Assembly (NCBI GenBank): GCA_036380735.1
Contig: DASVEE010000015.1
Location: 48,954 to 112,953, forward strand
Direction of reading: 5' to 3'
Origin: Thermoanaerobaculia bacterium
Lineage (GTDB): Bacteria; Acidobacteriota; Thermoanaerobaculia; Gp7-AA8
Length of the DNA stretch: 64,000 bases
In this document: positions 10,066 to 41,288 of the stretch, piece after piece
Position numbering within the stretch: the first letter of the stretch is position 1
Layout: each line of letters starts with the position of its first letter
Translations under genes and position numbers: made by a program
The notes under the pieces: generated by a model
What the model was told of the DNA's origin: nothing
Databases searched by the model: none
Seen by the model: the letters and a program-made list of their open reading frames with translations, nothing else

Positions 10066-10068
10066 GTA

Positions 10069-14184: not shown

Positions 14185-14213
14185 AGCGACCGTGGTGTGG
14201 TGAGGTGGGACAT

Positions 14214-15393: not shown

Positions 15394-15473
15394 GTCGTTG
15401 TCCGTTGTCCGTTGTCCGTTTTCCGTGGCGCCCGGTGAAACCACGGACAACGGAAAACGGACAACGGACAACG
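15394..15473. repeat. Tandem-repeat-armed hairpin element (GTCCGTT heptamer arms)
   Basis: gtcgttgtccgttgtccgttgtccgttttccgtgg-cgcccggtgaaa-ccacggacaacggaaaacggacaacggacaacg. Confidence 0.85.
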
Positions 15474-17021: not shown

Positions 17022-17651
17022 TCAGAGCTCCGGCCGCGCATTGTAAAGCGGATTGCCGGACGGATCGCCGGGGCGATTGCTGAGCGGATCGATGCCTGCG
17101 CGGCGCAGCATCTGGAAAAGCGTCGCCAGCGGGAGCCCCACCACGTTCGTGTAGCTGCCGTGGATGGACTCGATGAACATGGCGCCGATGCCCTGCACGG
17201 CGTAGGCGCCGGCCTTATCCATCGGCTCGCCGGTGCTCACGTACCAGGCGATTTCGTCGTCGGAGAGCGGCAGCATGCGCACTTCCGACTCGGCCACGCG
17301 CGTCTCGTGGTGCTTCCGCTCGAGGTTCACCAGCGTCACGCCCGTGTAAACAATGTGGGTCTGGCCGGCGATGGTCTTCAGCATGCGCCGCGCGTCGGCT
17401 TCGTCGACAGGCTTTTCGAGGAGCTGCTCGCCGAGGAGGACGGTGGTGTCGGCGGCGATGACCCAGCGCGAGGGATGCTCCTGCGCCAGCGCCGCCGCTT
17501 TGTCGCGCGAGAGCCGCGCGACGTACTCCTCCGGTGCTTCTCCGTCCGCGCGCACTTCGGGGACGTGCGACGGCAGGACGTCGAAGTCGAGACCGATGGA
17601 CGCGAGCAGCTCGCGCCGCCGCGGCGAAGCGGAAGCCAGGATGAATTTCAC
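17022..17651 (-). CDS. maf: Maf-like nucleoside triphosphate pyrophosphatase
   Basis: KFILASASPRRRELL...; GTG start inferred; its start overlaps the stop of the upstream toxin gene. Confidence 0.8.
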   Translation of the reverse strand: MKFILASASPRRRELLASIGLDFDVLPSHVPEVRADGEAPEEYVARLSRDKAAALAQEHPSRWVIAADTTVLLGEQLLEKPVDEADARRMLKTIAGQTHIVYTGVTLVNLERKHHETRVAESEVRMLPLSDDEIAWYVSTGEPMDKAGAYAVQGIGAMFIESIHGSYTNVVGLPLATLFQMLRRAGIDPLSNRPGDPSGNPLYNARPEL

Positions 17652-17908
17652 CGGAGCGGTCTCTCCTCGATGCGCACGATGGCCAGGATCAGCACATACC
17701 GCGCCTCCGCCACGATCCGGTAGAGGATGCGCAGCCCGCCGATGCGATGGCTCCACAGGCCGCGCAACGGCTCGAAGAGGGGCGTGCCGACGATGGGGTC
17801 CTCGTCGATGATCTCCAGCGTCTTCATGACCAGGGCGCGCTCGTCGGAGTTGAGCGCTGCCCAGTCGTCGGCCACGGATTGGGCCAGGCGGAGGCGGTTA
17901 TGCCACAC
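17648..17908 (-). CDS. RelE/ParE-family type II toxin
   Basis: ...LEIIDEDPIVGTPLFEPLRGLWSHRIGGLRILYRIVAEARYVLILAIVRIEER; start trimmed to the GTG downstream of the repeat hairpin; the longer ORF-track N-terminus is repeat-encoded (TDNGPRTTDN). Confidence 0.65.
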   Translation of the reverse strand: MWHNRLRLAQSVADDWAALNSDERALVMKTLEIIDEDPIVGTPLFEPLRGLWSHRIGGLRILYRIVAEARYVLILAIVRIEERPLR

Positions 17909-17920
17909 ACGCCACCTCGG

Positions 17921-18013
17921 CCGGTTGTCCGTTGTCCGTGGTCCGTTGTCCGTGCTGGCGCTGCACGGACGCATAGCGCAGCACGGAAAACGGAAAACGG
18001 ACAACGGACAACG
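17921..18013. repeat. Tandem-repeat-armed hairpin element (GTCCGTT heptamer arms) between antitoxin and toxin genes
   Basis: ccggttgtccgttgtccgtggtccgttgtccgtgctg-gcgctgcacggacgcatagcgcag-cacggaaaacggaaaacggacaacggacaacg. Confidence 0.85.
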
Positions 18014-18019
18014 CGTCCC

Positions 18020-18277
18020 TCACCCCAGATCCTCCACTTCCAGCACCGCCCCCGCGCGCACCTCTTCTTCCGCGCGGTTCAATCTGGCCGTGACGTTCGC
18101 GTCGTTGGCCAGCTCGATCGTTTCGCGGAGGGCAAAGTATTCGTCGTAGGAGACGAGCATCACGACCGGGCGGCCGTGGCGCTCGAAGATGGTGCGTTTG
18201 CCCGTGAGCTCGCACTCGAGCACGAGCTCGCGAGCGTCGGGCGGAAGGTCGAGGATCTCGGTGCGGCGCTCGCGCAT
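18020..18277 (-). CDS. Phd/YefM-family antitoxin
   Basis: ...FERHGRPVVMLVSYDEYFALRETIELANDANVTARL..., matching the Phd/YefM signature; lies upstream of the RelE-like gene. Confidence 0.65.
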   Translation of the reverse strand: MRERRTEILDLPPDARELVLECELTGKRTIFERHGRPVVMLVSYDEYFALRETIELANDANVTARLNRAEEEVRAGAVLEVEDLG

Positions 18278-18283
18278 GGCGGC

Positions 18284-19223: not shown

Positions 19224-19330
19224 AAAGGACGGAAGGGACCGATGGACCGATCGGACAGACCGCGCAAGTCCGGGTGGGCGGGGTCCCATCCGTCCTATCG
19301 GTCATATACGTCCCATTCGTTCCATCGTCC
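19224..19330. repeat. Tandem-repeat-armed hairpin element (GGACCGAT / GTCCTAT-type arms)
   Basis: aaaggacggaagggaccgatggaccgatcggacag ... gggtcccatccgtcctatcggtcatatacgtcccattcgttccatcgtcc. Confidence 0.7.
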
Positions 19331-20872: not shown

Positions 20873-20914
20873 GGGGTCCTATAGGTCCTATCCGTCCATA
20901 CGTCCTATCGTCTC
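20873..20914. repeat. Single-arm GTCCTAT-type tandem array
   Basis: ggggtcctataggtcctatccgtccatacgtcctatcgtctcc; no clear complementary arm. Confidence 0.6.
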
Positions 20915-21006: not shown

Positions 21007-22947
21007 ATGCGTAAATTCCTGATTCTCTTCATCGTTGTTCTTCTTGCGACTCCGGCATTCGCACAGTGGCGGCGGGCGGGTCTCTACGGCGCCGACGTCC
21101 GTGCGCTCATCGTCGACCCGAACGAGCCGGACACGCTCTATCTCGGCACCAGCAGTGGTGAGGTTTACTACTCGGTCGACGGCGCGAAGACGTGGCTGAA
21201 CCCGAGGAACGGCATCCCGTTCCCGAATCACGTCGTGGACAACCTGGTCATCGACCGCGCCGGACGCCTCTGGGTGGCCGCGTGGGGTCTCTGGGGCGGC
21301 GGCGTCATCGCCGTCTCGAACGACCGCGGACGCACCTGGACGCGCCGTGACGCCGGACTCGAGGACTTCTCCGTCCGCGCCATCGCGCTCGATCAGAAGG
21401 ACCCGAACTACGTCGTCGTCGGCGGCCTGACGGGCGTGTACCGCAGCAAGGACGGCGGCGAGCAGTGGCAGAAGATCTCCGAACAGATCAACGTCGAATC
21501 GCTGGCCATCGATCCCCGCTCGCGCGAGCGCATCTTCGTCGGCACGTGGCGCCAGGGATGGCGCACCGACGACGGCGGCAAGAACTGGAAGCACATCGCG
21601 AACGGCATGGTGCTGGACACCGACATGTTCTCGATCACCATCGACGCGAAGAACCCCGACAACATGTGGGTGGCGACGTGCGGCTGGGTCTACAACACGA
21701 AGAACAGCGGCGACCTCTGGACGCGCTACCGCGACGGCTTCAACAACCGCCGCATCCACGCCGTGGAGATCGACCCGTGCAACGCCGACACGGTCTACGC
21801 CGGCTCGGTGGCGGGACTCTACCGCTCCGAAGATCACGGCAAGTCGTGGTACGTCGTCTCCGATGAAGGACTGGTCATCAACTCGATCGTCCTGCATCCG
21901 CAGCGCCCCAACCGCATCATCCTCGCCGTCGAAGGCGATGGCGTTTACGTCTCGCACGACCGTGGGAAGACGCTGAAGCGCACCGCCGACGGGCTGCACA
22001 ACCTCCGCATCACCAGCGTCGTGGCCGACCCGGTCGAAAAGGACCGCGTCTACGCCGCCGTCGCTTTCGGCGGTCAGGCCTCCGGCATCTACTCCTCGGA
22101 GGACGCCGGAAAGACGTGGGCCAAGATGAGCCACGGTGCGACGCTCCCGGAAGTGCTGTCGCTGACGGTCGCCCCGGAGCCCGACGCCGAGGTGCGCTTT
22201 TTCGCCGGCACCGAGAAAGGCTTCTTCTTTAGCAAGGACGGCAAAGAGTGGACGCAGGCGGAGCCTTCCAGCTTCCCGCTGCGCGTGGCGAAGGTCGTCC
22301 GCTTCAACCGCAACCGCTACTTCGCGGCGACGAGTGAAGGCGTGTTCACCTCGAAGGACGGTGGCCAGAACTGGTACCGCCTCGCCGACTCCGACCGCCG
22401 CACCGTCGACATCGCCATCGGCAACGTCGGCGGCAAGCAGGCGCTCTTCGCCCTCACCTCCGATGGCGTGAAGGTCTACGACAGCGGCCGCTGGGCCCCG
22501 GTCGCCGACGCCCCGTCGCAGGGACGCACGCTCGCCGTCCGCAACGTCGCCGGGGGACAGCTCGTCTTCGTCGCCGGCGCGCATGGCGTCAAATCCGGCC
22601 GCATCGACGACGAGCGCCGCTGGCAGCCGGTCGAAGCTCCCGACGCGCAGTACGCCTCCGTCCTCAGCGGCACCCGCTCGGCCGGACAGATGCTGTTCCT
22701 CACGTCACGCCAGCAGCGCGAGATCCTCGTCGGTGACGCCAACGAGAACGACTGGCTGGAACTGGTGATGCCGACACGCAACACCGAGGTCACCGCCGTC
22801 TCCCCCGATCCCTTCGCCGGCGACCGCTACTACGTGGCCACCCTCGGCGAAGGCGTCTACGTCTACGAGGGCAAGACCCGCAAGTACGTGAAGAAGGTCA
22901 CGCCGCCCGCGGAAGAGCGCGCAGCGCTGACCGGCGGGGCCAAGTGA
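21007..22947 (+). CDS. Secreted BNR/Asp-box repeat beta-propeller protein (Ycf48-like / sialidase-like)
   Basis: Signal peptide MRKFLILFIVVLLATPAFA and many S/x-DxGxTW Asp-box repeats (SVDGAKTW, SNDRGRTW, SKDGGEQW, TDDGGKNW, SEDHGKSW, SHDRGKTL, SEDAGKTW, SKDGKEW, SKDGGQNW). Confidence 0.8.
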   Translation: MRKFLILFIVVLLATPAFAQWRRAGLYGADVRALIVDPNEPDTLYLGTSSGEVYYSVDGAKTWLNPRNGIPFPNHVVDNLVIDRAGRLWVAAWGLWGGGVIAVSNDRGRTWTRRDAGLEDFSVRAIALDQKDPNYVVVGGLTGVYRSKDGGEQWQKISEQINVESLAIDPRSRERIFVGTWRQGWRTDDGGKNWKHIANGMVLDTDMFSITIDAKNPDNMWVATCGWVYNTKNSGDLWTRYRDGFNNRRIHAVEIDPCNADTVYAGSVAGLYRSEDHGKSWYVVSDEGLVINSIVLHPQRPNRIILAVEGDGVYVSHDRGKTLKRTADGLHNLRITSVVADPVEKDRVYAAVAFGGQASGIYSSEDAGKTWAKMSHGATLPEVLSLTVAPEPDAEVRFFAGTEKGFFFSKDGKEWTQAEPSSFPLRVAKVVRFNRNRYFAATSEGVFTSKDGGQNWYRLADSDRRTVDIAIGNVGGKQALFALTSDGVKVYDSGRWAPVADAPSQGRTLAVRNVAGGQLVFVAGAHGVKSGRIDDERRWQPVEAPDAQYASVLSGTRSAGQMLFLTSRQQREILVGDANENDWLELVMPTRNTEVTAVSPDPFAGDRYYVATLGEGVYVYEGKTRKYVKKVTPPAEERAALTGGAK

Positions 22948-22950
22948 TGC

Positions 22951-23096
22951 GAACTTCGAATGAAGAATTTCGAATGAAGAATTGAGGTGCGCCGCTTCGC
23001 GGCGGCGCTGTTCATAGCTGCGGTGGCGAAGCCACCGCACACCACAATTCGAAATTCGAACCTCTTCATTCGAACTTCGAAATTCGCCTCTCCTCG
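22951..23096. repeat. Tandem-repeat-armed hairpin element (GAATGAA/GAATTTC/GAACTTC heptamer arms) with long GC-rich core
   Basis: gaacttcgaatgaagaatttcgaatgaagaattg ... aattcgaaattcgaacctcttcattcgaacttcgaaattcg; the core is itself palindromic (cgcttcgcggcggcgctg ... cggtggcgaagccaccg). Confidence 0.85.
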
Positions 23097-23102
23097 AGGC
23101 CT

Positions 23103-23576
23103 TCACCTCGGATCAAAGTATCTGACCGCCATGAACCCCACGCCCTTCTGGCCGTTCTCCGACTTCGGGTCATCGGACAGCACGACGATGACGTTGGGCA
23201 GACGGTCGTCGTAGATCAGGACCGACTTCGTCCCTTTCTTCGGTTGACCGAGGGTCTTGGTCAGGAACTGCTTTTCCTCGGCGAAGGCCTTGCGGACCTC
23301 GGGGAGAAACGAGAACAGCTCGAAGCGGACGGACTTCAGCCGCTCCTTCTGGAACTCCAGGGTGAGGGCGCGCTCGTCGGTGTAGTCGACGAGCATTTCG
23401 TCCGCCTTTTTCCCCTGCTTCACCTGCCAGCCGCCGTCGGAGAGGGTGCGGACGGCGTCGGCGCGGCTCATGCCAATCGTGAGACGGAACGATTCGGGGC
23501 GCATCCAGCCGGTCTGACTGGCGGAGGGGAAGGCCGTGGCGGCCGAGAGCAGGAGAGTGAGGATCGTCGTGAGCAT
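23103..23576 (-). CDS. Hypothetical secreted protein
   Basis: Signal peptide only; no recognisable motifs. Confidence 0.4.
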   Translation of the reverse strand: MLTTILTLLLSAATAFPSASQTGWMRPESFRLTIGMSRADAVRTLSDGGWQVKQGKKADEMLVDYTDERALTLEFQKERLKSVRFELFSFLPEVRKAFAEEKQFLTKTLGQPKKGTKSVLIYDDRLPNVIVVLSDDPKSENGQKGVGFMAVRYFDPR

Positions 23577-24257
23577 TCAGTGTATGTACGGAGAGTCCGG
23601 ACGGGCCGTCGAGCGGCGGGACTGCACGATGGAGGTGGCGAGGAGGACGCGGCGGCCGATCTCGTCCCACTGCTGCGTCTTGACGAGGTCCGGCATCGCC
23701 AGCGAGCCGCCGAGGTTCACGGCGACGCAGCCGGCGTCGAGATAGGAGTCGATGTATTCGAGCGTCACGAGTCCGCCGGCGAGCATCGGGATGTCGCGCA
23801 GCGGTCCGCGGATCGTGCGGATGTAATCGGGTCCGCCGAGCTGCGGCGCGGGGTAGACCTTGACGATGTCGCAGCCCGCTTCCCAGGCGCGCACGATCTC
23901 GGTCGGCGTGGCCGCTCCGGCGACGGAGAGCATGTCGTTCTCGATCGAATAGTCGATGAGGCGGACGTCGGTGTGCGGCGAGACGATGACTTCCGCCCCG
24001 GCGCGACGGGCCAGCGCCGCGTCGTTCGTGCTGCGAACCGTTCCGGCCGCGACGACGATGCCCTGATCCTTGTAGCGCTGCACCATCTTCCCGATCAGCT
24101 CGACGGCGTCGGGCGTGGTGAGGGTGATCTCGAGGACCCGGATTCCGTTACGGGCATAAGCATCAGCGACGGACTCGGCAATGCGAGCGTCATCTTCGCG
24201 AACGACGCCGACGATCTGTTCCGAGCAGACGCGGCGCAAGAGCTCCTTGCGTGACAT
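23577..24257 (-). CDS. eda: KDPG / KHG aldolase (Eda family)
   Basis: ...GIRVLEITLTTPDA...VAAGTV...GAEVIVSPH...VKVYPA... typical of Eda TIM-barrel aldolases. Confidence 0.75.
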   Translation of the reverse strand: MSRKELLRRVCSEQIVGVVREDDARIAESVADAYARNGIRVLEITLTTPDAVELIGKMVQRYKDQGIVVAAGTVRSTNDAALARRAGAEVIVSPHTDVRLIDYSIENDMLSVAGAATPTEIVRAWEAGCDIVKVYPAPQLGGPDYIRTIRGPLRDIPMLAGGLVTLEYIDSYLDAGCVAVNLGGSLAMPDLVKTQQWDEIGRRVLLATSIVQSRRSTARPDSPYIH

Positions 24258-24280
24258 GCGGGTAGGGTAGCACGCGCGAT

Positions 24281-24362
24281 TTATGGGACTAATAGGGCAC
24301 ACACTTCTGCCTCTGTCCTATACGTCCCATTCGTCCTATCGGTCCTATACGTCCTATCGTTC
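24281..24362. repeat. GTCCTAT-type tandem array with weak complementary left arm
   Basis: tatgggactaatagggcac ... tgtcctatacgtcccattcgtcctatcggtcctatacgtcctatcgttcc. Confidence 0.65.
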
Positions 24363-24371
24363 CCCGGCGAT

Positions 24372-26660
24372 TCAATGCACCTTGGCAATCAGACGCCCGA
24401 AGGCCGCCTCTCCGCGAAGTACATCCAGCCGCGGGTCTACCGCCAGAAAGACCATCCAGGCGCTGCGCTCCGCGAAGGCTTCTTCCAGTTTGGCCAGCGC
24501 CGCCGCGCGGTCGCCTAAGCCGGCGTGCACGATGGCGATGTCGTACGCGGAGATGTACCGCTGCTGCGCCTCGTTCATCAGCTCCGCCAGCAGCGCCTCC
24601 GCTTCGCTCCTCCGCCCGGCGATGGCGTACGTGTGGGCCAGCATCGCGCGCAGGATCGGGATGCGGTCCACTTCCAGCGCCCGGCGGAAGGCGTCGAGCG
24701 CTTCGTCGTAGCGGTGCTGCTGCCCGAGGGCCATGCCGAGCCAGCCGTGGGCGGGGATGAAGTTCTCGTCGAGCTCCAGCGCCTTGCGGAAGCGGCGGAT
24801 CGCCGTCTCGTGATCGCGGGCGAAGTAGAACGGCCACCCGGCGTGCACGGCGATGATCAGCGACAGCGGATCGAGGTCGCCCGCCTTCGTCACCTGCTCG
24901 ATCGCCTCGGACGGCCGGTTCCGCGCGCACAGCAGCATGGCGTAGCCGTCGTGTGCCGTGGCGTAGTTTGGATTCAGCTCGATGGCGCGGCGGTACGCCT
25001 GCTCGGCGCCATCCCAGTCCCAGTCGAACCACCACTTCACCGCGCCGAGCGACGCCCACGCTTCGGCGAGCCCGTCGTCGATCTCCAGCGCGCGCATCGC
25101 CGCCGCTTTCGCCTTCGGCATCGCGTCGTTCGGCGGCAGCGGGATGTTGGTGGCCAGCGTCATGAACGAGTCGGCCAAGCCGGCGTACGCGGAGGCGAAC
25201 GACGGATCGGATTCGATCGCCTCGCGGAAGAACGTGATGCCGCGCTTGAGGCTCTCCTCCGTCCGTTTGTTCCAGTGGTAGCGCCCCTTGAGGTAGAGCT
25301 GGTACGCCTCGCTGTTCTCCGTCTGCCGCTTGCGCAGCTTCTTTTTCTCCGCGCCGGTCAGCTTGAGGCGCAGCTTCTCCGTGATCTCGCGCGCCATCTC
25401 TTCCTGCAGCTTGAGGATGTCCGCGAGCTCGCGGTTGTACGTTTCGCCCCAGAGCTGCGAGCCGTCGAACGAATCGACCAGCTCCACGTTGATGAGGAAG
25501 CGATCGCCGAGCTGCGCCAGTCTGCCGGTGAGCACCGCGCGCACGCGCAGCTCGCGGCCGGCCTGTTGCGCATCGGTCTCGCGGTTCTTGTAGCGGAAGA
25601 CGGTGCTGCGCGCCATCACCTTCAGCTTCGGCAGTTGCGACAGCTTGTTGATGATCGCCTCGGTGATGCCGTCGCTGAGGTACTCCGCGTTCGGATCGTT
25701 CGTCGCGTTGCGCAGCGGCAGCACGGCGATGGAATCGATCGACTTCGAGCGGCGCGTGCTCGTCAGCTTCCGCACCAGCTCCCCCTTCATGGTGGAGGAG
25801 CTGCTGCCGATCGCGCGCAGCGTCAGCGCGAGGTCGCGTGTCGACTGGAAGCGCGAGGAGGGGTTCTTCTCGACGCAGCCTTCGATGATGCGCTGGAACT
25901 CGGGTGGTACGGCCTCAGCGAGGAGGTCGCGCGGCAGGTCTTCCTTGAGGATCGCCGCGATGGTGGCAGCGCCGGAGTCGCGGTGGAACGGCTTCCGCGA
26001 GGTGACCATCTCGAAGAGGATGCAGCCGAGGGCGAAGATGTCGGCGGTCGGATCGACGGCTTCGCCGCGGAGCTGCTCGGGCGACATGTAGCCGAGCGTG
26101 CCGATCACCGTGCCCGGATCCGTCTGGAACCACTTCGTGGTGGGGATGTTCGCTTCGTCGCGCTGCATGAGCAGCGGATCGGTCTGCGCGAGCCCGAAGT
26201 CGAGGATCTTCACACGCCCGTCGGCGGTGAGGAAGATGTTCTCCGGCTTCAGGTCGCGATGGATGACCGACTTCGCATGCGCCACCGCCAGCCCTTCGGC
26301 CACTTCGGCGCCGACTTCGACGGCGCGGCGCCAGTTGAGCGGCATGTGCTGCAGCTGATCGCGCAGCGTGCGGCCTTCGAGCAGCTCCATGACCACGTAG
26401 AACGTGCCGTTCTCCCGGCCGACGTCGTGGACGGCGACCAGGTTCGGATGCGACAGCGCGGCGATGGCGCGCGCCTCCCGCTCGAAGCGCGCGACCGCTT
26501 CGGCGTCATGTTGCGAGTCGCGGTGAAGGATCTTGATGGCGACGTCCCGCCCGAGCCGCGGGTCGCGTCCCCGCCAGACCTGCCCCATCCCGCCTTCGCC
26601 CAGGAGCGAAAGCACGTCATAGGGGCCGATCCTGGAGCCGGCGGACAGCACGGGGGACAT
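24372..26660 (-). CDS. Serine/threonine protein kinase with C-terminal TPR repeats
   Basis: GEGGMGQVWRG...VAIK, HRDLKPENI, DFGLA and SPEQ motifs; the C-terminal half is TPR repeats. Confidence 0.9.
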   Translation of the reverse strand: MSPVLSAGSRIGPYDVLSLLGEGGMGQVWRGRDPRLGRDVAIKILHRDSQHDAEAVARFEREARAIAALSHPNLVAVHDVGRENGTFYVVMELLEGRTLRDQLQHMPLNWRRAVEVGAEVAEGLAVAHAKSVIHRDLKPENIFLTADGRVKILDFGLAQTDPLLMQRDEANIPTTKWFQTDPGTVIGTLGYMSPEQLRGEAVDPTADIFALGCILFEMVTSRKPFHRDSGAATIAAILKEDLPRDLLAEAVPPEFQRIIEGCVEKNPSSRFQSTRDLALTLRAIGSSSSTMKGELVRKLTSTRRSKSIDSIAVLPLRNATNDPNAEYLSDGITEAIINKLSQLPKLKVMARSTVFRYKNRETDAQQAGRELRVRAVLTGRLAQLGDRFLINVELVDSFDGSQLWGETYNRELADILKLQEEMAREITEKLRLKLTGAEKKKLRKRQTENSEAYQLYLKGRYHWNKRTEESLKRGITFFREAIESDPSFASAYAGLADSFMTLATNIPLPPNDAMPKAKAAAMRALEIDDGLAEAWASLGAVKWWFDWDWDGAEQAYRRAIELNPNYATAHDGYAMLLCARNRPSEAIEQVTKAGDLDPLSLIIAVHAGWPFYFARDHETAIRRFRKALELDENFIPAHGWLGMALGQQHRYDEALDAFRRALEVDRIPILRAMLAHTYAIAGRRSEAEALLAELMNEAQQRYISAYDIAIVHAGLGDRAAALAKLEEAFAERSAWMVFLAVDPRLDVLRGEAAFGRLIAKVH

Positions 26661-26703
26661 TGTAGATGGGGAGGGACCAACCAACGGGCGATACCGATGA
26701 ACC

Positions 26704-26805
26704 GAATTAAGAATTTCGAATTTCGAATGAAGAATGGCTGCGCTGTCCGGGGGCAGACCGTGGGTGGGGGGGACTTCGAAATTCGAAATTCGAAATTCTT
26801 AATTC
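26704..26805. repeat. Tandem-repeat-armed hairpin element (GAATTTC/GAATGAA heptamer arms), core GGCTGCGCTG...
   Basis: gaattaagaatttcgaatttcgaatgaagaat-ggctgcgctgtccgggggcagaccgtgggtggggggga-cttcgaaattcgaaattcgaaattcttaattc. Confidence 0.85.
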
Positions 26806-26912
26806 ACTCTCCGCCCCCTAAATCCCGAACGATCCGCGATCCAGTTCTCCCCGCCCCCAACGCGACCCCGCTCACAGTCCCCCGCCCACCAACTGGTTTA
26901 ACATCCCGCCCC

Positions 26913-27911
26913 ATGGTCCTGATCAACAAGGCGATCAACGAGGTGACGGTCAAGCTGGTCTACTACGGCCCGGGCCTCTGCGGCAAAACCACGAACCTGG
27001 AAAAGATCTACGGCAACCCGAAGCTCGAGAACAAAGGGAAGATGATCTCGATGGCGACGGAGACCGACCGGACGCTGTTCTTCGACTTCATGCCGATGGA
27101 GCTCGGCACGATCGCCGGGCAGAAGGTGCGTGTGCAGCTCTACACGGTGCCGGGGCAGGTGTTCTACGACGCCACGCGCAAGCTCGTCCTGCGCGGCGCC
27201 GACGGCGTCGTCTTCGTGGCCGACTCGCAGAAGTCGATGCGCGAGTCGAACCTCGTCAGCCTGGAGAACCTGAAGACGAACCTGCGCATCAACCGCATCG
27301 ATCCGGACAAGGTGGCGATCGTCTTCCAGTACAACAAGCGCGATCTGCCGACGGCGGCCACGGTCGAAGAGATGACGGAGTACCTCGAGCCGGGCAATGC
27401 GCCGATCGTCGAAGCGTCGGCCATCAACGGCGCCGGCGTGACGGCGACGCTGCGCGCGGCGGTCTCGAAGATCCTCGACAACCTGAAGAACAACGTCGAC
27501 GTGACGCTGTACGAAGCGGCGCCGCTGGCCGCGCCCGACATGACGCAGAAAGCGGGCGTGACGCCGTCGTCCGCCGGCACGCCGAAGCTGTCGATGAAGA
27601 ACGAAAACCTCATGCGCACCGACCCGGTGCCGGTCGCGTCGTTGCCCCCGGAGCCCGAGCCCGCGCCCTTCGAGGTGCCGTTCGCCGCCGTCGAAGCCGC
27701 GGTCGATACCGCCTTCGACAGCGCCATCGACACCTCGATCGCGGTCGAAGTCCAGGACGATCCGTTCGCCTCGCATCACGAAGAGGAGCCGCGCATCGAC
27801 CTCTCCGCCATGCTGGCAAGCGCCCGCGCGGTCGTGGCGTCGCTGGAAGCCGCGCTGGAAAAAGCGCGGGAACATGAACGGTCGATCCAGGAACAGATGA
27901 ACCGCGGATAG
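26913..27911 (+). CDS. MglA-like Ras-superfamily small GTPase with about 130-aa low-complexity C-terminal extension
   Basis: VKLVYYGPGLCGKTTNLEKI (P-loop), LYTVPGQ (switch II), FQYNKRDL (NKxD); no MglB/roadblock partner adjacent; gene bracketed by two same-family repeat hairpins. Confidence 0.75.
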   Translation: MVLINKAINEVTVKLVYYGPGLCGKTTNLEKIYGNPKLENKGKMISMATETDRTLFFDFMPMELGTIAGQKVRVQLYTVPGQVFYDATRKLVLRGADGVVFVADSQKSMRESNLVSLENLKTNLRINRIDPDKVAIVFQYNKRDLPTAATVEEMTEYLEPGNAPIVEASAINGAGVTATLRAAVSKILDNLKNNVDVTLYEAAPLAAPDMTQKAGVTPSSAGTPKLSMKNENLMRTDPVPVASLPPEPEPAPFEVPFAAVEAAVDTAFDSAIDTSIAVEVQDDPFASHHEEEPRIDLSAMLASARAVVASLEAALEKAREHERSIQEQMNRG

Positions 27912-27915
27912 GCCG

Positions 27916-28010
27916 GAATTTCGAATGAAGAATTTCGAAGTTCGAATGAAGAATGGCTGCTGGCCAGTGCGTTTCTAAATTCAACATTCGAAATTCGAAA
28001 TTCTTCATTC
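27916..28010. repeat. Tandem-repeat-armed hairpin element (GAATTTC/GAATGAA heptamer arms), core GGCTGCTGGCCAGTGCG
   Basis: gaatttcgaatgaagaatttcgaagttcgaatgaagaat ... aaattcaacattcgaaattcgaaattcttcattc. Confidence 0.85.
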
Positions 28011-28072
28011 ACCGTTTCCCTCATCCTCACGTCGTTCCTACTCCCCACCTGTTATAAAGTGCCCCCCGCCCA

Positions 28073-28786
28073 ATGACCTGGTACCAGGAATGGTTCGGCG
28101 AGGAGTACCTCGAGCTCTACGCCTACCGCGATGAAGAGGAAGCGCGGCAGCAGGTCTCCTTCTTTCGCGAGCAGTGCGGCCTCTTTCGCGGACCGGTGCT
28201 CGATCTCGCGTGCGGGATGGGTCGGCACATGGACGAGCTGCGCACCGCCGGCTACGAGCCCGTCGGCTGCGACCTCTCCTACACGCTGCTGCGCACCGGC
28301 ATCACGCAATACGGCACGATGCCCGTCGTGCGGGCCGACATGCGCAGCCTGCCGTTCTGTGACGACACGTTCGACGGCCTGGTCAACTTCTTCACGAGCT
28401 TCGGCTACTTCGCCACGGAAGACGAAAACCTCCAGGTCGTCCGCGAGATGGCGCGCGTCCTCAGCAACAACTCGCCCTTCCTCTTCGACTACCTCAACGT
28501 CCATCGCGAGCTCGAGAAGATGGTGCAGCGGGAGACGCGCACGACGCCGACGGGCGAGGTGAAGCTCGAGCGCTGGTTCGACGGATCTGACCGCTCCTTC
28601 AACAAGCGGATAACGATCGGTGACAAGCGCTATCTGGAGCGGGTTCGCGGCTACGATCTCGACGAAATCTCGATGATGTTCACTTCCTGCAACCTCGCGA
28701 TCCGCAGCGCCTTCGGCGACTTCGACGGCTCGCCGTTCACGCACACCTCGCCGCGGCTGATCCTCGTCGGGAGCTACATCCGATGA
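28073..28786 (+). CDS. Class I SAM-dependent methyltransferase; candidate N-methyl-bacillithiol synthase (NmbA-like), by context
   Basis: VLDLACGMGRH (motif I); overlaps the bshC start (ATGA). Confidence 0.6.
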   Translation: MTWYQEWFGEEYLELYAYRDEEEARQQVSFFREQCGLFRGPVLDLACGMGRHMDELRTAGYEPVGCDLSYTLLRTGITQYGTMPVVRADMRSLPFCDDTFDGLVNFFTSFGYFATEDENLQVVREMARVLSNNSPFLFDYLNVHRELEKMVQRETRTTPTGEVKLERWFDGSDRSFNKRITIGDKRYLERVRGYDLDEISMMFTSCNLAIRSAFGDFDGSPFTHTSPRLILVGSYIR

Positions 28787-30333
28787 GCGAGCCCGGTTGT
28801 CTCCGCGCGCCGCTGGCGCGCTATCCGGGCTTCAATCGCTTCGTCCTCGACTGGCTTTCCTCACGGGAGAGCGCCGTGCGCTTCCTGCCGCGCGCGACGG
28901 AGCTTCGCGAGCGCGGAGCGCAGTCGCCGGAAGTCAGCCAGCGCAAAGCCGAAGTCGCGAATGCGCTGATCGCGACGAACCAGCGCTGGGGCCTCTTCGT
29001 CGAGAACGACGTCCGCCAGTGGGAGTCCGGCGAAGCGGTGACGCTCGTCGCCGGGCAGCAGGTCGGCTTCGCCGGCGGGCCGCTCTACACGCTGGCGAAG
29101 ATCGCGTCGCTCGTGCGCATGAAGCGCGACCTCGAAGCGCAAGGCCGGAAAGCGACCGCGTTCTTCTGGCTGGCGACCGAGGATCATGATTTCGACGAAG
29201 TGGCGAACATCGCGCTGCCGGTGCAGTCGATCGGCGGCGAGAAGAGCGTCAACCGGCAGCTCGACCTCCTGAAGCTGCGCGCCGTGCGCGGGCTCGACGG
29301 GCACTCCGTCGTCGGTTCGCTGCCGCTGCCCGAGGTGCTGATCGCGCAGCTCCTCTCCGTGTACGACATGCCGCGCCCGTCGTGGCTGCGCGAAGGAGTG
29401 AACTTCCGCGACTCGTTCGCGGAGCTGCTGGCCACCGTCTTCGGCGGCGAGATCGTCCTCATCGACGCACTGCAGCCGGAACTGCGCCGCGCCGCCGCAC
29501 CGCTCTTCGACGCCATCACCGCGAAGTGGGACGACGTGCAGCACGCCATCGGCGCGCGCTCGGTGGAGTTGCAGCAGGCCGGCTACGCGCAACAGGTCGT
29601 GCCGCGCGAAGGGGAGTCGTACACGCTGCTCTTTCACGTCTACGAAGACGGCACGCGCAGCGCCCTCGGGCGGCCCGAGCAGCTCGTGCCGGAGCAGACG
29701 TCGACCTCCGCGCTCACACGCCCGCTGCTGCAGGACTTCGTGCTGCAGCCGGACGTCTTCGTCGGCGGTCCCGCCGAAGTCGCCTACTACGCGCAGATCG
29801 CCCCGCTCCACGACCTCCTCGGCGTGCCGATGCCGCGCGTCGCGTTACGCGCGCACGCACTCGTCGCGCCGAAACGCAACGTGCGGGCGATGGAGCGGCT
29901 GCACATCTCCGCCGACGAAGTGTTCGCCAGCGCCGACGAGATCGTCGCCGCTCGTGAGCCTGAGGGCGTGGCGCGCGTGCGCGAGCTCGCCGACGCCGCG
30001 CACAAGGAGCTGCTGACGCGGATCGAGGAGCTCGGGCAGATCGCGCTGCCGGCCGATCACGCGCTGGCGCGCGCGTTCAACCGTTCCGTCGGCCACATCG
30101 AGTTTCATTTCGGGAAGCTCGCCGAGCGCTCCATCAAAGGGCTCGTGCGGAAGGACAAGGAGCGTCACGCCGCCGTGCGCGAGCTCGTGGCCACGCTCTA
30201 TCCCGACCGTCACGTGCAGGACCGCGTCGTGTCGTGGTTCTCGTACTGGTGCCACTATGATCGGTACCTCGTCGACCGTCTGATCGACTGCGTCGAGCCC
30301 GATTCCGATTCCTTTGTGATCGTAGGTCTATGA
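28783..30333 (+). CDS. bshC: Bacillithiol biosynthesis cysteine-adding enzyme BshC
   Basis: 516 aa; BshC/YllA-family architecture and length; sits in an operon with bshB and bshA. Confidence 0.65.
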   Translation: MSEPGCLRAPLARYPGFNRFVLDWLSSRESAVRFLPRATELRERGAQSPEVSQRKAEVANALIATNQRWGLFVENDVRQWESGEAVTLVAGQQVGFAGGPLYTLAKIASLVRMKRDLEAQGRKATAFFWLATEDHDFDEVANIALPVQSIGGEKSVNRQLDLLKLRAVRGLDGHSVVGSLPLPEVLIAQLLSVYDMPRPSWLREGVNFRDSFAELLATVFGGEIVLIDALQPELRRAAAPLFDAITAKWDDVQHAIGARSVELQQAGYAQQVVPREGESYTLLFHVYEDGTRSALGRPEQLVPEQTSTSALTRPLLQDFVLQPDVFVGGPAEVAYYAQIAPLHDLLGVPMPRVALRAHALVAPKRNVRAMERLHISADEVFASADEIVAAREPEGVARVRELADAAHKELLTRIEELGQIALPADHALARAFNRSVGHIEFHFGKLAERSIKGLVRKDKERHAAVRELVATLYPDRHVQDRVVSWFSYWCHYDRYLVDRLIDCVEPDSDSFVIVGL

Positions 30334-31052
30334 GCGAACAAGTCGACATCATCTTCTTCGGCGCGCATCCGGACGACGTCGAGCTCTCCTGCGGCGGCAC
30401 CGTCGCCAAATTCGTGAAAGACGGCGTGCGCGTCGGCATGGTGGACCTCACGCGCGGCGAGATGGGGACGCGCGGCACGCCGCAGACGCGGAAGCGCGAA
30501 GCCGCCGCCTCGGCGAAGATTCTCGGCGCGGCCTTCCGCGAGCAGCTCGACTTCGGCGACGGCGACCTCCGCACCGGCCGCGAGGAACAGTTGCAGGTCA
30601 TCGACGTCATCCGCCGCTACCGGCCGAAGGTCATCTTCACCGCGTGGCCGGACGAGCGTCATCCCGATCACGAGCGCGGCGGCCGGCTGGTCACCGAAGC
30701 CTCGTTCTACGCCGGCCTCAAAGCGCTGGAGACCAAGTACCCCGTGCACCGGCCGCAGACCGTCGTGTACTACCTGCAGAACTACGTCCTCGCGCCGACG
30801 TTCGTCGTCGACGTGACGAGCGCGTGGAAGACGAAGATGCGCTCCGTCGCCGCGTTCAAGTCGCAGTTCTACGACCCGAATTCGAAAGAGCCGAAGACGG
30901 TGCTCTCCGACCCCAGGTTCCTCGAAATGATCGACGCCCGCGGCCGCCACTTCGGCGCGTTGATCGGCGTGAAGTACGGCGAAGCGTTCCTCACGAAACA
31001 GCCGCCGCGGATCGATGATGTGGTGGCTGCGTACAGCGGGCGTGAGGTCTAG
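30330..31052 (+). CDS. bshB: Bacillithiol biosynthesis deacetylase BshB (LmbE/PIG-L family)
   Basis: IIFFGAHPDDVELSCGGT...HPDH LmbE motifs. Confidence 0.75.
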   Translation: MSEQVDIIFFGAHPDDVELSCGGTVAKFVKDGVRVGMVDLTRGEMGTRGTPQTRKREAAASAKILGAAFREQLDFGDGDLRTGREEQLQVIDVIRRYRPKVIFTAWPDERHPDHERGGRLVTEASFYAGLKALETKYPVHRPQTVVYYLQNYVLAPTFVVDVTSAWKTKMRSVAAFKSQFYDPNSKEPKTVLSDPRFLEMIDARGRHFGALIGVKYGEAFLTKQPPRIDDVVAAYSGREV

Positions 31053-32165
31053 ATGAGAATCGGCATCACCTGCTATCCCACTTTCGGCGGTTCCGGCGTC
31101 GTGGCCACGGAGCTCGGTCTCGCCCTGGCGAAGCGGGGCGACGACGTGCACTTCATCAGCTACGCGCTGCCGTCGCGGCTGAACATCCTCCACGAGCGCG
31201 TGCACTTCCACGAGGTCACGGTCACGCCGTACCCGCTGTTCGATCCGTATCCTCCGTACACGCTCGCCCTGGCGACGAAGATGGCAGAGGTCGCGGCGTA
31301 CGAGCGGCTCGACGTGCTGCACGTCCACTACGCGATCCCCCATGCGATCAGCGCGCATCTCGCGAAGCAGATCCTGGCGAACCAGAAGCTGAAGGTCGTC
31401 ACCACGCTGCACGGCACCGACATTACGCTCGTCGGCCGCGACCCCAGCTACCTGCCCATCACCAAGTTTGGCATCGAGGTATCGGACGGCGTCACGGCTG
31501 TCTCGCAGTGGCTGAAGCGGGAGACGGCGCAGAACTTCGCGACCGACAAAGCCATCGAGGTGATCCCCAACTTCGTCGACCCGCAGCGCTTCCGCCGCAC
31601 CGACCAGGCGTATTGCCGGCAGTTCGGCGCGCCGGGCGACAAGCTGCTCTGCCACGTCTCCAACTTCCGCCCGGTGAAACGGATCATGGACGTCGTGGAG
31701 GTCTTCGAGCGCGTCGCGCGTGAAGTCCCGAGCCGCCTGCTGATGGTCGGCGACGGCCCCGATCGTTCGCGCGCCGAGGCGTACTGCCGCGATCACGGCC
31801 TCCGCGACCGCGTCATCTTCATCGGCAGCGTCCCCAACCTGGAAGAGATCGTCGGCTCCACGGACCTCTTCCTGCTGCCCTCGGACGCCGAGTCGTTCGG
31901 TATGGCGGCGCTGGAAGCGCTGGCCTGCGAAGTCCCGGTCATCGCCACGCGCGCCGGAGGCCTACCCGAGGTCGTCGACGACGGCGAAACCGGCTTCCTG
32001 CTGCCGGTGGCGGATGTCGACGGCATGGCTGCCAGAGCCATCGAGATCCTGCGCGACGACGCCCTGCGGAAGAAAATGGGCGCCCGCGGCCGGGAACTGG
32101 CCATTGAGAGGTTCGACGTGAACCGGATTGTGCCCAAGTACCGCGAACTGTACGAAAGCGTGTAG
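31053..32165 (+). CDS. bshA: N-acetyl-alpha-D-glucosaminyl L-malate synthase BshA (GT4 glycosyltransferase)
   Basis: [22 protein letters not shown]... GT4 fold; adjacent to bshB and bshC. Confidence 0.7.
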
Positions 32166-32170
32166 CAGGG

Positions 32171-32296
32171 GAACGATAGGACCTATAGGACGAATAGCAC
32201 CTATAGGACGGATAGGACCCCGCCACCCGAGATCCGCCTTTGACGTTGTCCTCTAGGTCCCATCCGTCCCATCCGTCCTATAGGTCCTATCGTCCC
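32171..32296. repeat. Tandem-repeat-armed hairpin element (ATAGGAC 9-mer arms) between bshA and the slt gene
   Basis: aacgataggacctataggacgaatagcacctataggacggataggac ... gtcctctaggtcccatccgtcccatccgtcctataggtcctatcgtcccc. Confidence 0.8.
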
Positions 32297-32297
32297 C

Positions 32298-34718
32298 TCA
32301 CGGTTCCGCGCGAATGCCGCCAGCCGGGCCACTTCCTCCGTAGATCTCGTTGTACCTTTCGTACGAGTTCATCACTTTGCGGATGTAGTGTTTCGTCTCG
32401 TCGAAGTTAACGGAGGACAGGAAGAAGTCATCCCCTGCGGCGGGCTGGATGCGCGACCACAGGGCGACCTGTTTCGGGCCGGCGTTGTAGGCCGCGGCGA
32501 CGCGGTAGCGGTTGCCGCCGAGTTGCTCCGACAGTTCGCTGACGTACTTGGCGCCGAGCTGGATGATCACCCTCGGGTCGTACAGATCCTCCGGGTCGAC
32601 GTCGACGAGGCCGATGCCGCGGCCGATCTCGCGTGCGGTGGTGATGATGAACTGCAGCAGGCCGCGCGCCGCCGCGACCGACTTTGCGCGCGGGTTGAAG
32701 CGCGACTCTTCGCGCATGATCGACAGCACGAGCGTCGGGTCGGCGCCGAAGCGTTTGGCGTCGGCCGTGATGAACTCGTGGAAGTAGCGCGGGTAGAGCA
32801 GCTCGCGCACGCGGCGCGGCAGCAGCTCCGGGTAGAAGTCCTTCGGCACGCGGTTCATCATCACTTCGATCGCGTAGATCGATTCGCGCGACGCGCTCCC
32901 TCGGTTCAGCGCCAGCGAGCGCGTCAGCGCTTCCTTCGCCGGGCGCAGGTCCCACCGCCGGGTGATGTCGTCGACCGCTTCGTCGTGCAGCCCCATCGCC
33001 ATCAGCAGCAGCGCGCGGTTGTCCGACTCCATCGGGAGCTTCGGGAACGCGTGCGGCTCGAGCGACAGCACCGCCTTGTAGACGCCGAGCTGCTCGTAGA
33101 TCTGGCGCAGGATCGCGAGCTGCTTCGCGTGATCGCGCGACGACAGCAGCAGGCGATCCGTCTGGATCTCCTTCGCTTCCTCGAACTTCTTCTCCGCCAT
33201 CAGCGTGCGCACCTGCGCTTCGCGGCGCGCCAGCTCCTGCGCCAGGCGCGGCGCCATCTGCGCCGAGTCGAGCCGCCGCCGCGCAAAGTACGCAAAGTGC
33301 GCCGGGACGTCGGAGCGCAGGACCGTCAGGTAGTCGCGGAACGCACCCGCGGGATCGCCCGCTTCGAGGGCACGCGCTCGCCAGTACGCAAACTCCGCTT
33401 CGTCGTAGCCGTCGAGCAGCGCGCGCGGCACGGCGTTCAGCGTGCCCACCGCGGCGGTGTGCTGGTTGCGGCCGATCATGCCGATCGCATACGCCAGCGA
33501 CCCTTCGAGCACCGCGCGCTCGTTCGGCGCCAGCTTGCGCAGCAGCGCGAGATCGCCTTGCGCTTCGGCCAGACGTCCGGCGCGTAGCCGCGTACGCAAC
33601 CGCTGCGTCAGCGCGGCCAGCGTCGCAGGGAACTTCCCCGGGATGGCGATCGACTGCGTCATCAGCTTCTCGGCCGTTGCATCGTCGCCGCGCAACTGCG
33701 CCGCACGCGCGGCGTGCCAGAGGAACGTGACCTTCTGCTCCGGCTTTTGCGTCGCCGCCGCACCGGCCAGGTACGTCCGCTGCGCCTCGGCGAACTGCTC
33801 GTTGCCGAAGTAGCTGCGCCCGAGGGCGAAGCGGAGATCGTCGGCGCGCTGGGGGAGGCGGGGGATGGCCATCGACAGCAGCGCCACGGCGCGCGCGTAG
33901 TGGCGGTGATTGCGGAACGTTTCGCCGAGGAGCGCCCACTGCTCCGGGTTCATGCGGCGGATCAGCTCCGGACGGTCGAGCGCGCGCGAGATGCGGTCGG
34001 ACGCGTCGTCCGTCGAGTTGCCGCGCAGCAGCGGGATCCCGTTCGCCAGCGCGCGCTCCTCGTCGCCGCCGCGTACGAGCGTGGCCACGATGCGTGCGTC
34101 GATGTCGCGTTTCTGCTGCGGCGTGGCCGTCACGTTAAGGCGCATGGCGAACGAGAGGAGGGGCCGTGCGTCCTCGAGCCCGCCGAGGTATTCCAGCTCC
34201 TCCTCGATGGCGGTGTCGCGATACATCGCGTCGGGCATGCTGAAGATCAGCGTGTGGCGCGTCTTGCTCGCCGCGGCCGCGTCTCCGCCGGCGTCATCGA
34301 GCGCGGCGCGGTGATACAGCGCCAGCTCGCGGAACGGATTCCCCTCGGCCAGAAACGGCGCGAGGCGCTGTCCCGCTTCCTCGCGGTCGTTCTCCTCGAT
34401 GAGCGCGCGGGCGTGGAGGTAGCCGAGCGACCACTGCTGGTACTCCTTCGGATGCTTCTTCTCGATCTCGTCGAGGAGGTCGTCGAGCGCCGAGGGGTTC
34501 AGTTGCTGGAAGGTCTCGGTCCACTGCTCGACCGGCGGGATGCCGGCGGGCGGTTGCGGTTTCACCTCTCCCGCGGTCGTGCGGAAGACGCGATGGCGGC
34601 GGACGCGCTGCCGGGCGAGGTAGATGGCGGCGAGGGTGACGATCAGGACGAGAGCGACGAGACTGAGGAGGATTACGCGTCGTGGGACGCGTCGATGTTC
34701 ATCGTGTTTCTCGGTCAT
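32298..34718 (-). CDS. Soluble lytic murein transglycosylase (Slt family) with long superhelical N-terminal domain
   Basis: C-terminal SLT catalytic motif (ESRFNPRAKSVAAARGLLQFI...AYNAGP); 806 aa. Confidence 0.8.
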   Translation of the reverse strand: MTEKHDEHRRVPRRVILLSLVALVLIVTLAAIYLARQRVRRHRVFRTTAGEVKPQPPAGIPPVEQWTETFQQLNPSALDDLLDEIEKKHPKEYQQWSLGYLHARALIEENDREEAGQRLAPFLAEGNPFRELALYHRAALDDAGGDAAAASKTRHTLIFSMPDAMYRDTAIEEELEYLGGLEDARPLLSFAMRLNVTATPQQKRDIDARIVATLVRGGDEERALANGIPLLRGNSTDDASDRISRALDRPELIRRMNPEQWALLGETFRNHRHYARAVALLSMAIPRLPQRADDLRFALGRSYFGNEQFAEAQRTYLAGAAATQKPEQKVTFLWHAARAAQLRGDDATAEKLMTQSIAIPGKFPATLAALTQRLRTRLRAGRLAEAQGDLALLRKLAPNERAVLEGSLAYAIGMIGRNQHTAAVGTLNAVPRALLDGYDEAEFAYWRARALEAGDPAGAFRDYLTVLRSDVPAHFAYFARRRLDSAQMAPRLAQELARREAQVRTLMAEKKFEEAKEIQTDRLLLSSRDHAKQLAILRQIYEQLGVYKAVLSLEPHAFPKLPMESDNRALLLMAMGLHDEAVDDITRRWDLRPAKEALTRSLALNRGSASRESIYAIEVMMNRVPKDFYPELLPRRVRELLYPRYFHEFITADAKRFGADPTLVLSIMREESRFNPRAKSVAAARGLLQFIITTAREIGRGIGLVDVDPEDLYDPRVIIQLGAKYVSELSEQLGGNRYRVAAAYNAGPKQVALWSRIQPAAGDDFFLSSVNFDETKHYIRKVMNSYERYNEIYGGSGPAGGIRAEP

Positions 34719-36955: not shown

Positions 36956-37027
36956 GAGGACGAATAGGACCTATGGGACGCCCTATTTGTCCCATCTGTC
37001 CTATAGGTCCTATTCGTCCTATCGAGC
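36956..37027. repeat. Tandem-repeat-armed hairpin element (ATAGGAC 9-mer arms, very short loop)
   Basis: gaggacgaataggacctatgggacg-ccctatttgtcccatctgtcctataggtcctattcgtcctatcgagcc. Confidence 0.75.
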
Positions 37028-41282: not shown

Positions 41283-41288
41283 AAGCTT

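Follow-up and report, generated by a model that had tools for sequence, protein, structure and literature searches.

A stretch of 64,000 nucleotides from a Thermoanaerobaculia bacterium (assembly GCA_036380735.1, contig DASVEE010000015.1, positions 48,954 to 112,953 of the forward strand), hereafter referred to as the window, was found to encode an MglA-family GTPase whose G domain continues into a conserved C-terminal tail of 135 amino acids (aa) and whose gene has no mglB beside it. Among bacteria, MglA serves as the model of a Ras-like polarity switch and, to our knowledge, almost everything known of it comes from Myxococcus, Thermus and Bdellovibrio, where it consists of the G domain alone. 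All sequence criteria tested identify the product of the gene as an MglA-family GTPase of the Group-1 type and not a Rup protein. The comparisons given below indicate that it is one of an acidobacterial subfamily of such proteins that has been inherited vertically, the nearest named loci being Thermoanaerobaculia metagenome-assembled genomes (MAGs), and, judged by its conserved tail and separate clade, this subfamily differs from the described members of MglA. An earlier note on this DNA had proposed that the GTPase could be a polarity or signalling switch wired to a divergently encoded Ser/Thr kinase instead of to MglB.

The MglA-like GTPase and its tail

The gene and its parts are located as follows, with the basis of each assignment in brackets.

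26913–27911, + strand: tailed MglA-like GTPase gene, 332 aa plus stop (open reading frame, match to MglA in the PDB, 120 full-length homologues at 64–86% identity)
26913–27503, + strand: GTPase domain, residues 1–197 (PDB match and conserved residues)
26967–26993, + strand: P-loop GPGLCGKTT, residues 19–27 (sequence motif)
27063–27089, + strand: Arg-finger segment TDRTLFFDF, residues 51–59 (sequence motif)
27144–27158, + strand: G3 motif TVPGQ, residues 78–82 (sequence motif)
27333–27344, + strand: G4 motif NKRD, residues 141–144 (sequence motif)
27525–27599, + strand: tail box LAAPDMTQKAGVTPSSAGTPKLSMK, residues 205–229 (alignment of 121 sequences)
27600–27788, + strand: acidic, Pro/Ala-rich stretch, predicted disordered, residues 230–292 (motif counts, model confidence of 39–54)
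27666–27671, 27678–27683 and 27762–27767, + strand: PF of the three xPF motifs of this linker (sequence)
27789–27905, + strand: predicted terminal amphipathic, coiled-coil-like helix, residues 293–331 (structure prediction and motif)

The open reading frame (ORF) starts with an ATG at 26913, and its stop codon ends at 27911. Searching the PDB with phmmer identified Myxococcus xanthus MglA (PDB 6h17, 5ymx, 6hjh) as the best solved relative (E ~3e-66, gapless over residues 2–193), and Thermus thermophilus MglA (PDB 3t12) matched over the same residues with an E value of 4e-54. The next-best matches were Rab GTPases at E 5e-07 or weaker, some 60 orders of magnitude below MglA. When set against the M. 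xanthus and T. thermophilus structures (PDB 6h17, 5ymx, 3t12), the G domain corresponds one to one over this range, including the P-loop, R53, TVPGQ, Gln82 and NKRD. The canonical proteins, however, end 2–5 residues past alpha5, where the window GTPase carries its tail, and the latter also differs from them in having no mglB within 10 kb, in falling into a separate clade and in the surface of alpha5.

A hallmark of MglA is that G3 lacks the Asp of other GTPases, reading TxxGQ instead of DxxGQ (PMC4316618). Here G3 reads TVPGQ, with no Asp and with the catalytic Gln82 retained, as in MglA, and the features that define Rup, an Asp retained in G3 (DxxGQ) and a closer relationship to Rup/Rab than to MglA, were not found in the protein. 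The gene was assigned to MglA and not to Rup because of this G3 and the intrinsic Arg finger, which upholds what the earlier note had read from the TVPGQ and NKRD motifs. The finger residue, R53 in M. xanthus numbering, is invariant across 121 family sequences (the window protein and its 120 best homologues), and GPGLCGKTT and NKRD were found in 121 and 120 of these, respectively. In all 12 tailed sequences compared, G21, T26, T27, R53, Q82, N141, K142 and D144 are conserved, as is T78. The catalytic core (P-loop, R53, Gln82, NKRD) therefore appears intact and the protein is most likely still a GTP/GDP switch. The surface of alpha5 shows clade-specific substitutions relative to canonical MglA (F177T, D178A, K181R, K185A/S, L186R/K and T189D), and the pocket residues L64 and I67 are retained in the tailed clade. 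In M. xanthus the alpha5 face, together with L64 and I67, makes up the pocket for the C-terminal helix of MglB (PMC6785124).

A search of 5.8 billion proteins gave at least 8000 matches, and the figures given here for homologues rest on the best 120. These are 302–387 aa in length, are 64–86% identical to the window protein, cover 86–100% of it (at least 97% for all but two) and all bear a tail; those for which an organism is given come from Acidobacteriota MAGs, Thermoanaerobaculia included. Carriers of the tailed gene include GCA_009772585.1 (WNEZ01000019.1), ERZ25039504 contig_2141 (2.5 Mb), ERZ25039588 contig_25123 (1.2 Mb), DASYGV01, DASXHZ01, DASXRT01 and JBGPFD01. An identical copy of the window protein was not found in public assemblies. 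In alignments of 23 and of 121 sequences the G domain is almost invariant, and the tail behind it, ~105 to 190 residues long across the subfamily, has three conserved parts. In the window protein the tail comprises residues 198–332, with 14 Pro, 24 Ala, 23 Asp plus Glu and a net charge of -13, in agreement with the roughly 130-aa proline-, alanine- and acidic-rich tail described in the earlier note.

The first conserved part, the tail box (residues 205–229), has the consensus L..PDMTQK(A/S)GV...SAGTPKLSMK, in which P208, D209, G215, S220, G222 and K225 are invariant in the 121 sequences; AGTPKLS is present in 95 of them. In the acidic stretch that follows, residues 229–296 have a net charge of -13, and xPF motifs of the consensus (E/D)(E/D)DPF(A/G), numbering one to four per protein, occur in every one of the 121 family members. 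The third part is the terminal helix segment, with the consensus LLANARALVASLEAALERARENER and a motif of the (A/S/T/L/G)LExAL type in 116 of the 121 sequences. When AlphaFold2 (AF2) was given the 121-sequence alignment, a Ras-like GTPase fold was predicted, followed by disorder over residues 194–292, the tail box included (predicted local distance difference test, pLDDT, 39–54), and by one helix at 293–331 (pLDDT 96–98). The prediction made with 23 sequences was poor (pLDDT 54), yet it returned the same helix (297–331). Its hydrophobic residues are spaced at 3–4 positions in a heptad-like stripe, which fits a coiled coil or a docking helix.

Searching 1.8 billion cluster representatives with the tail only gave 25 matches, mostly short fragments and some with a partial GTPase domain, among which no other protein family was recognised, their identities not having been checked individually. 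A profile of the tail against the PDB matched only keratin coiled coil and ribosomal protein S15, both at E>0.5, and nothing significant. Judging from the family alignments and from the search with the tail only, the tail is a real, conserved and family-specific feature. In the literature searchable here, no paper on MglA together with Thermoanaerobaculia was found, nor one on such a tail among the papers on MglA with tail, disorder or Acidobacteria.

Clade placement and the search for MglB

Relatives were collected in a one-genome-per-species scan, all counts from which are lower bounds; loci are cited by number. The scan returned at least eight tail-bearing loci (L003–L010), seven labelled Thermoanaerobaculia and one Acidobacteriota, together with a divergent relative (L011), which has a tail of 90 residues in which the terminal helix is the sole element kept, and, from other phyla, some 70 loci with an ordinary mglA. 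In a neighbour-joining (NJ) tree of G domains, built without support values, the tailed proteins form a clade of their own apart from the canonical 195-aa MglA. The canonical proteins outside it include the MglB-coupled acidobacterial L027 and L080, both Thermoanaerobaculia, as well as L057 and L077. The G domain has hardly changed between genomes in which the genes around it are only 40–90% identical. The earlier note had called for placement among MglA, SofG and Rup-type GTPases; the tree and the phmmer results place the protein in an MglA clade of its own and not with Rup. From SofG of M. xanthus, which carries N-terminal and internal extensions, it would differ in being extended at the C-terminus only. 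There is no N-terminal extension in the window protein, as the G domain runs from residue 1, and the same MVLINK start is found in L004, L005 and L007–L011.

The earlier statement that MglA proteins have no extension holds as a rule but is not universal, since long C-terminal tails unrelated to this one were found in Eisenbacteria (L012, 368 aa), Zixibacteria (L013, 395 aa), Sumerlaeaceae (L043, 357 aa) and Planctomycetota (L061, 382 aa). These proteins likewise consist of a G domain and a tail, of 146–203 aa, but when read side by side their tails have no visible sequence similarity to that of the window protein and are mutually unrelated. The Zixibacteria gene is flanked by MglB and a second, weak Roadblock-like ORF. 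In the Planctomycetota protein the end of the tail is hydrophobic and probably membrane-spanning, and MglB is encoded downstream.

The M. xanthus MglB sequence was used as a query, and it matched the ORF directly upstream of mglA in Myxococcus-type loci with an E value of 4e-101. MglB adjoins mglA in 57 of the 70 other MglA loci retrieved (L013–L082), and a hidden Markov model (HMM) was built from these 57 MglB proteins. Run with all filters off on ORFs of at least 70 aa, it matched nothing in L001–L012 or the 64-kb window, even at a cut-off of E<=10. The genes called up to 10 kb away in L001, L002 and L083–L090 encode no Robl_LC7 domain (PF03259), and Pfam scans of the small ORFs of the window found no Roadblock/LC7 domain. 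The GTPase gene is locally orphan throughout the family, that is, in the 64-kb window and in the 10-kb flanks of the 19 related loci, and the earlier observation that no mglB is adjacent was borne out. A coupled mglB within four genes is typical of MglA genes (390 of 449) but not obligatory, and the 59 orphans of that 2014 survey (~13%) include SofG and the MglA of Bdellovibrio, which are functional MglA-family switches although they too have no adjacent mglB (PMC4316618).

In MglB proteins encoded beside mglA, the C-terminal motif SPFAEITD(D/E)DID.LF is near-invariant. A profile-profile comparison of the tail with MglB aligned only six columns (dDPFA to eSPFA) at a probability of 0.4% and an E value of 0.14; the resemblance has no statistical support and was rejected as evidence for homology between tail and MglB.

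Two further observations concern MglA loci outside the tailed clade. Seven acidobacterial loci from Acidoferrales and others (L025, L041, L056, L065, L069, L074 and L079) encode 195-aa MglA proteins with no MglB within 10 kb; five of these have Ala instead of the P-loop T27, Glu is found at position 182 in all seven, and they are split over two separate branches of the NJ tree. A locus labelled Comamonas sp. KCTC 72670 (L033, BNCN01000011.1) has an mglB-mglA pair with a MasK-like kinase upstream. Its MglB scores the same as that of Corallococcus (both E 3.8e-101 against the M. xanthus sequence), and the label looks wrong or the assembly contaminated.

Neighbouring genes and hairpin elements

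The genes that surround the GTPase gene and the motif that precedes it are as follows.

24372–26684, - strand: Hanks-type Ser/Thr kinase with TolB_N/CadC-like middle and C-terminal TPRs, 770 aa (Pfam, NCBIfam)
26893–26904, + strand: promoter-like motif CTGGTTTAACAT (alignment of 20 upstream regions)
28073–28786, + strand: S-adenosylmethionine (SAM) methyltransferase (Pfam, NCBIfam)
28783–30333, + strand: bshC (Pfam, NCBIfam)
30330–31052, + strand: bshB-like PIG-L deacetylase (Pfam, NCBIfam)
31053–32165, + strand: bshA-like glycosyltransferase of family GT4 (Pfam, NCBIfam)

The divergent Ser/Thr kinase with TPR repeats described in the earlier note was found as such. It has an N-terminal Pkinase domain (E 1e-51), a middle region that matches models of the TolB_N/CadC/HilA type and several TPR families at its C-terminus, and its HRDLKPEN and DFG motifs, read from the sequence, are intact. 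Twenty family loci were compared, the window included. An orthologous kinase, 72–88% identical over its full length, is directly divergent from the GTPase in ten of these (the window, L001, L002, L003, L006, L083, L084, L085, L086 and L089), and in L090 a lactamase_B/rhodanese gene lies between the two. Eight otherwise syntenic loci are without the kinase and have a gene for KDPG (2-keto-3-deoxy-6-phosphogluconate) aldolase abutting the GTPase gene (L005, L007–L011, L087 and L088), and L004, also without it, has a wholly different context (a Na+/H+ exchanger and a histidine kinase/response regulator pair). All nine kinase-less loci keep a tail; the AGTPKLS box is present in eight of them, L011 having the terminal helix only. 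The kinase still stands beside the GTPase in L085 and L089, although the usual synteny is broken on its far side.

A tree of BshA plus BshB (NJ, no support values) was rooted with the kinase-less L011 as outgroup. In it the kinase-less pairs L005/L087 and L007/L088 are two separate groups nested among kinase-bearing loci, which implies one gain of the kinase and at least two losses. The kinase appears to be an ancestral, frequent but dispensable neighbour and not an obligate partner. The wiring to a kinase proposed earlier is supported in part: the adjacency recurs (ten loci, one more at a distance of one gene, and L085 and L089 among those that keep it), and the kinase is absent from nine of 20. 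The variation among neighbours that the earlier note had thought damaging to its proposal was found in part, the kinase being patchy.

A precedent is known from M. xanthus, in which masABK and mglBA are transcribed divergently and yeast two-hybrid assays showed binding of MasK to MglA (PMC3546991), so that there, too, a eukaryote-like kinase gene is divergent from the mglA operon. The kinase upstream of mglBA in Myxococcus-type loci, presumably MasK, is however only ~33% identical to the window kinase, in the kinase domain only; masA and masB are not found at the window locus, and MglB is present in Myxococcus and not here.

The GTPase gene occupies the same syntenic position in 19 of the 20 loci. 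It heads a conserved order in which a SAM methyltransferase gene, in most loci, is followed by bshC, bshB and bshA (bacillithiol synthesis). The three bsh genes lie downstream in 17 of 20 loci, the downstream side of L008–L010 being beyond the contig end and the context of L004 being a different one, and they are steadier neighbours than the kinase. In L084 (10001–15063) and L087 (10001–14384) the next gene begins on the last base of the GTPase gene, and this one-base overlap suggests that the GTPase is co-transcribed with the gene downstream. We know of no functional link between the tailed GTPase and bacillithiol genes. Upstream of the ATG, at a distance of 20–45 nt, a motif with the consensus CTGGTAAGCTT was found in most family loci, whether or not the kinase is present, which suggests that the GTPase may have its own promoter; in many loci the motif is followed by GGAGG. 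A scan of 26600–28150 for sigma-70 consensus promoters and for terminators found none, and no T-tract terminator.

The earlier note had also described two hairpin elements of the same unit that precisely bracket the GTPase gene. Both were found, with shared heptamers of the GAATTTC type, together with a third copy and many other sites (strand not assigned).

26704–26805: hairpin of the GAATTTC-heptamer family in the kinase/GTPase spacer (25-nt arms, 100% complementary; RNA fold -51.8 kcal/mol, z -6.5)
27916–28010: hairpin of the GAATTTC-heptamer family, 4 nt past the GTPase stop (32-nt arms, 91% complementary; -38.8 kcal/mol, z -6.3)
22948–23088: third GAATTTC-family hairpin, directly after a BNR/sortilin-like gene (RNA fold z -8.1)
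775–884, 3629–3761, 9442–9512, 10068–10168, 14213–14308, 15396–15473, 17924–18013: hairpin or array sites, first part
19236–19330, 20876–20912, 24315–24364, 32169–32297, 36998–37022, 38456–38545, 40481–40584: hairpin or array sites, second part
41278–41408, 43965–44043, 45300–45378, 46318–46419, 56466–56509, 59398–59521, 61277–61310: hairpin or array sites, third part

The z-scores compare folding with that of shuffled sequences. The three GAATTTC-family copies stand against 1.1 motif matches expected by chance in the window, and hairpins or arrays of tandem 7- or 9-nt units occur at no fewer than 20 intergenic sites, about one every 3 kb. The units of the arms vary (GAACGCA, GGATTGA, GTTGTCC, GGTTTTC, AGGGCTC, GAATTGA and the 9-mer GTCCTATNC), and folding is very strong at several sites, for example 41275–41412 (z -11) and 32165–32300 (z -7.8). 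The window hairpins look like one element class of common build with many sequence families. Like the intergenic repeats of the REP (repetitive extragenic palindromic) and MITE (miniature inverted-repeat transposable element) kind, they are short palindromes that recur, fold strongly and lie in intergenic spacers only; unlike these, they have arms in which units of 7 or 9 nt stand in tandem, and a single genome holds many such unit sequences. Searching Rfam with 22800–28200 gave only sub-threshold chance matches on the hairpins (miRNA and frameshift models).

Not one of the 82 loci compared has the GAATTTC motif; they include L001, the GTPase of which is 86% identical to that of the window. 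In L001 the same two spacers hold unrelated hairpins at 9868–9975 (z -4.9; arms of the GGCAGTT/GGCGGGT type) and at 11028–11170 (z -11.9; a palindrome of ~140 nt), and in relatives such as L003 the spacers are only ~30 nt long. The AT-rich core of the GAATTTC family, GAATKAAGAATTTCGAA, gave at least 120 metagenome matches (L091–L210), of which at least 56 are in high-GC (>=58% GC), soil-type contigs, where it often occurs as an inverted pair 50–80 nt apart. From its occurrence in these contigs, the family is taken to be spread over many related organisms. No ORF for MglA or MglB was found in the 56 high-GC contigs, a small sample of 266 kb in all. The bracket around the GTPase is incidental, and the hairpins are generic genome-wide intergenic repeats, because there is a third copy and there are at least 20 like sites in the window, the motif is absent in relatives and its core occurs in contigs without MglA.

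Only one of the core-bearing contigs, L154, overlaps the window, at 85% identity. It has a GAATTTC-type hairpin (81–135) near the site where the window has one of the GTTGTCC type (17924–18013), and hairpin sites were seen to recur between relatives while their repeat units differ (L001 and L154 against the window). A ParE-toxin/PhdYeFM-antitoxin pair lies at 17648–18283, in the upstream syntenic block. The longest ParE ORF contains the hairpin at 17924–18013 in its 5' part, and the annotated ParE start is therefore probably too far upstream.

Possible roles of the tail

On balance, we think that the tail probably serves as a cis-linked module for partner binding, localisation or oligomerisation. 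Fused to alpha5, it would act in cis, much as the C-terminal hypervariable regions do in eukaryotic Ras/Rab or the acidic disordered region does in RomR, and proteins bound to the DPF motifs and the terminal helix would read the switch state of the G domain. The kinase alongside would not be obligate in this scheme and the hairpins would be unrelated to GTPase function. Several points weigh against such a role. The binding partners of the tail are inferred only, and the AF2 prediction fits a helix docked on the G domain as well as a free one. Outside the stretches covered, these genomes may encode MglB, RomR/RomX or another canonical MglA, which could alter this reading. The retention of the kinase in L085 and L089 gives some support to more linkage than would be expected of a dispensable neighbour, and the lineage from which the family loci come is fairly narrow and strongly syntenic across the whole region, because of which the evidence from neighbours is weak both ways.

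It is also conceivable, though rather unlikely, that kinase and GTPase are a functional pair in which phosphorylation gates the localisation or activity of the GTPase, instead of or besides MglB, either through phosphorylation of the invariant Ser/Thr of the SAGTPKLSMK box or through binding of the TPR domain to the DPF motifs or terminal helix. The adjacency in half of the loci, with L090 one gene off, its persistence in L085 and L089 despite differing DNA beyond, the intact kinase motifs and the invariant S..G..K core of the tail box with its near-invariant Thr-Pro are all in keeping with such a pair, as is the example of masK, divergent from mglBA and with a product that binds MglA (PMC3546991). 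However, the nine loci without the kinase keep the tail, and eight of them the box, at least two independent losses are implied, the bsh genes are steadier neighbours, and the presumed MasK resembles the window kinase in one domain alone. The block of aldolase, kinase, GTPase, methyltransferase, bshCBA, SLT and proS is syntenic, and the adjacency may be no more than inherited gene order. A different use of the tail, and one that we consider distinctly improbable, is that it folds back into the alpha5/beta2-beta3 pocket, which in M. xanthus is filled in trans by the C-terminal helix of MglB (SPFAEITDDDIDNLF) or the Glu-rich helix of RomR. The DPFA motifs, the acidic start of the terminal helix or both would make the contact, and the switch would become partly independent of MglB through self-promoted nucleotide exchange or auto-inhibition. 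The pocket and its role have been described (PMC6785124), L64 and I67 are kept, as is positive charge at 181 (R) and 186, the clade-specific changes in alpha5 are as expected for a changed ligand, and (D/E)DPFA in its acidic context recalls the near-invariant MglB motif. Against this stand the six-column profile-profile alignment, the replacement of K185, a contact of the C-terminal helix in M. xanthus, by Ala or Ser, and the low AF2 confidence over the DPF region.

These two proposals can be combined into a self-contained, MglB-independent polarity switch, in which the DPFA motifs and helix of the tail would replace the MglB C-terminal helix or RomR in cis and the kinase would phosphorylate the SAGTPKLS box, with no GTPase-activating protein (GAP) of the Roadblock type; we hold this to be very doubtful. 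That the GTPase gene is a mobilised or bracket-regulated unit, marked by a same-family hairpin in the spacer on either side, has next to no likelihood. The gene keeps its syntenic position in 19 of 20 loci and the hairpins occur in none of the related loci tested; the third copy follows an unrelated gene at a distance of 3.7 kb, and the same plan with other units recurs at 20 or more intergenic sites of the window. The arms are inverted repeats within each element and not terminal repeats around the gene, and at least 56 high-GC metagenome contigs carry the core motif without MglA close by. The bracket described in the earlier note has no meaning for the GTPase, and a mobile cassette was rejected on the grounds of synteny, of absence in relatives and of the generic nature of the element class.

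The fold and chemistry of this GTPase are already known, and it is the function of its tail that is inferred only. If the self-contained switch were true, a Ras-like GTPase would be under the control of a tethered regulatory tail and Ser/Thr phosphorylation without a Roadblock-type GAP. The sequences compared here point to a large, tightly conserved acidobacterial branch of MglA with a structured tail, a changed alpha5 and no linked MglB. Such a branch would be a natural system for studying the localisation and regulation of a small GTPase without a Roadblock partner alongside, and it could show whether disordered tails act like the hypervariable regions of eukaryotic Ras/Rab.

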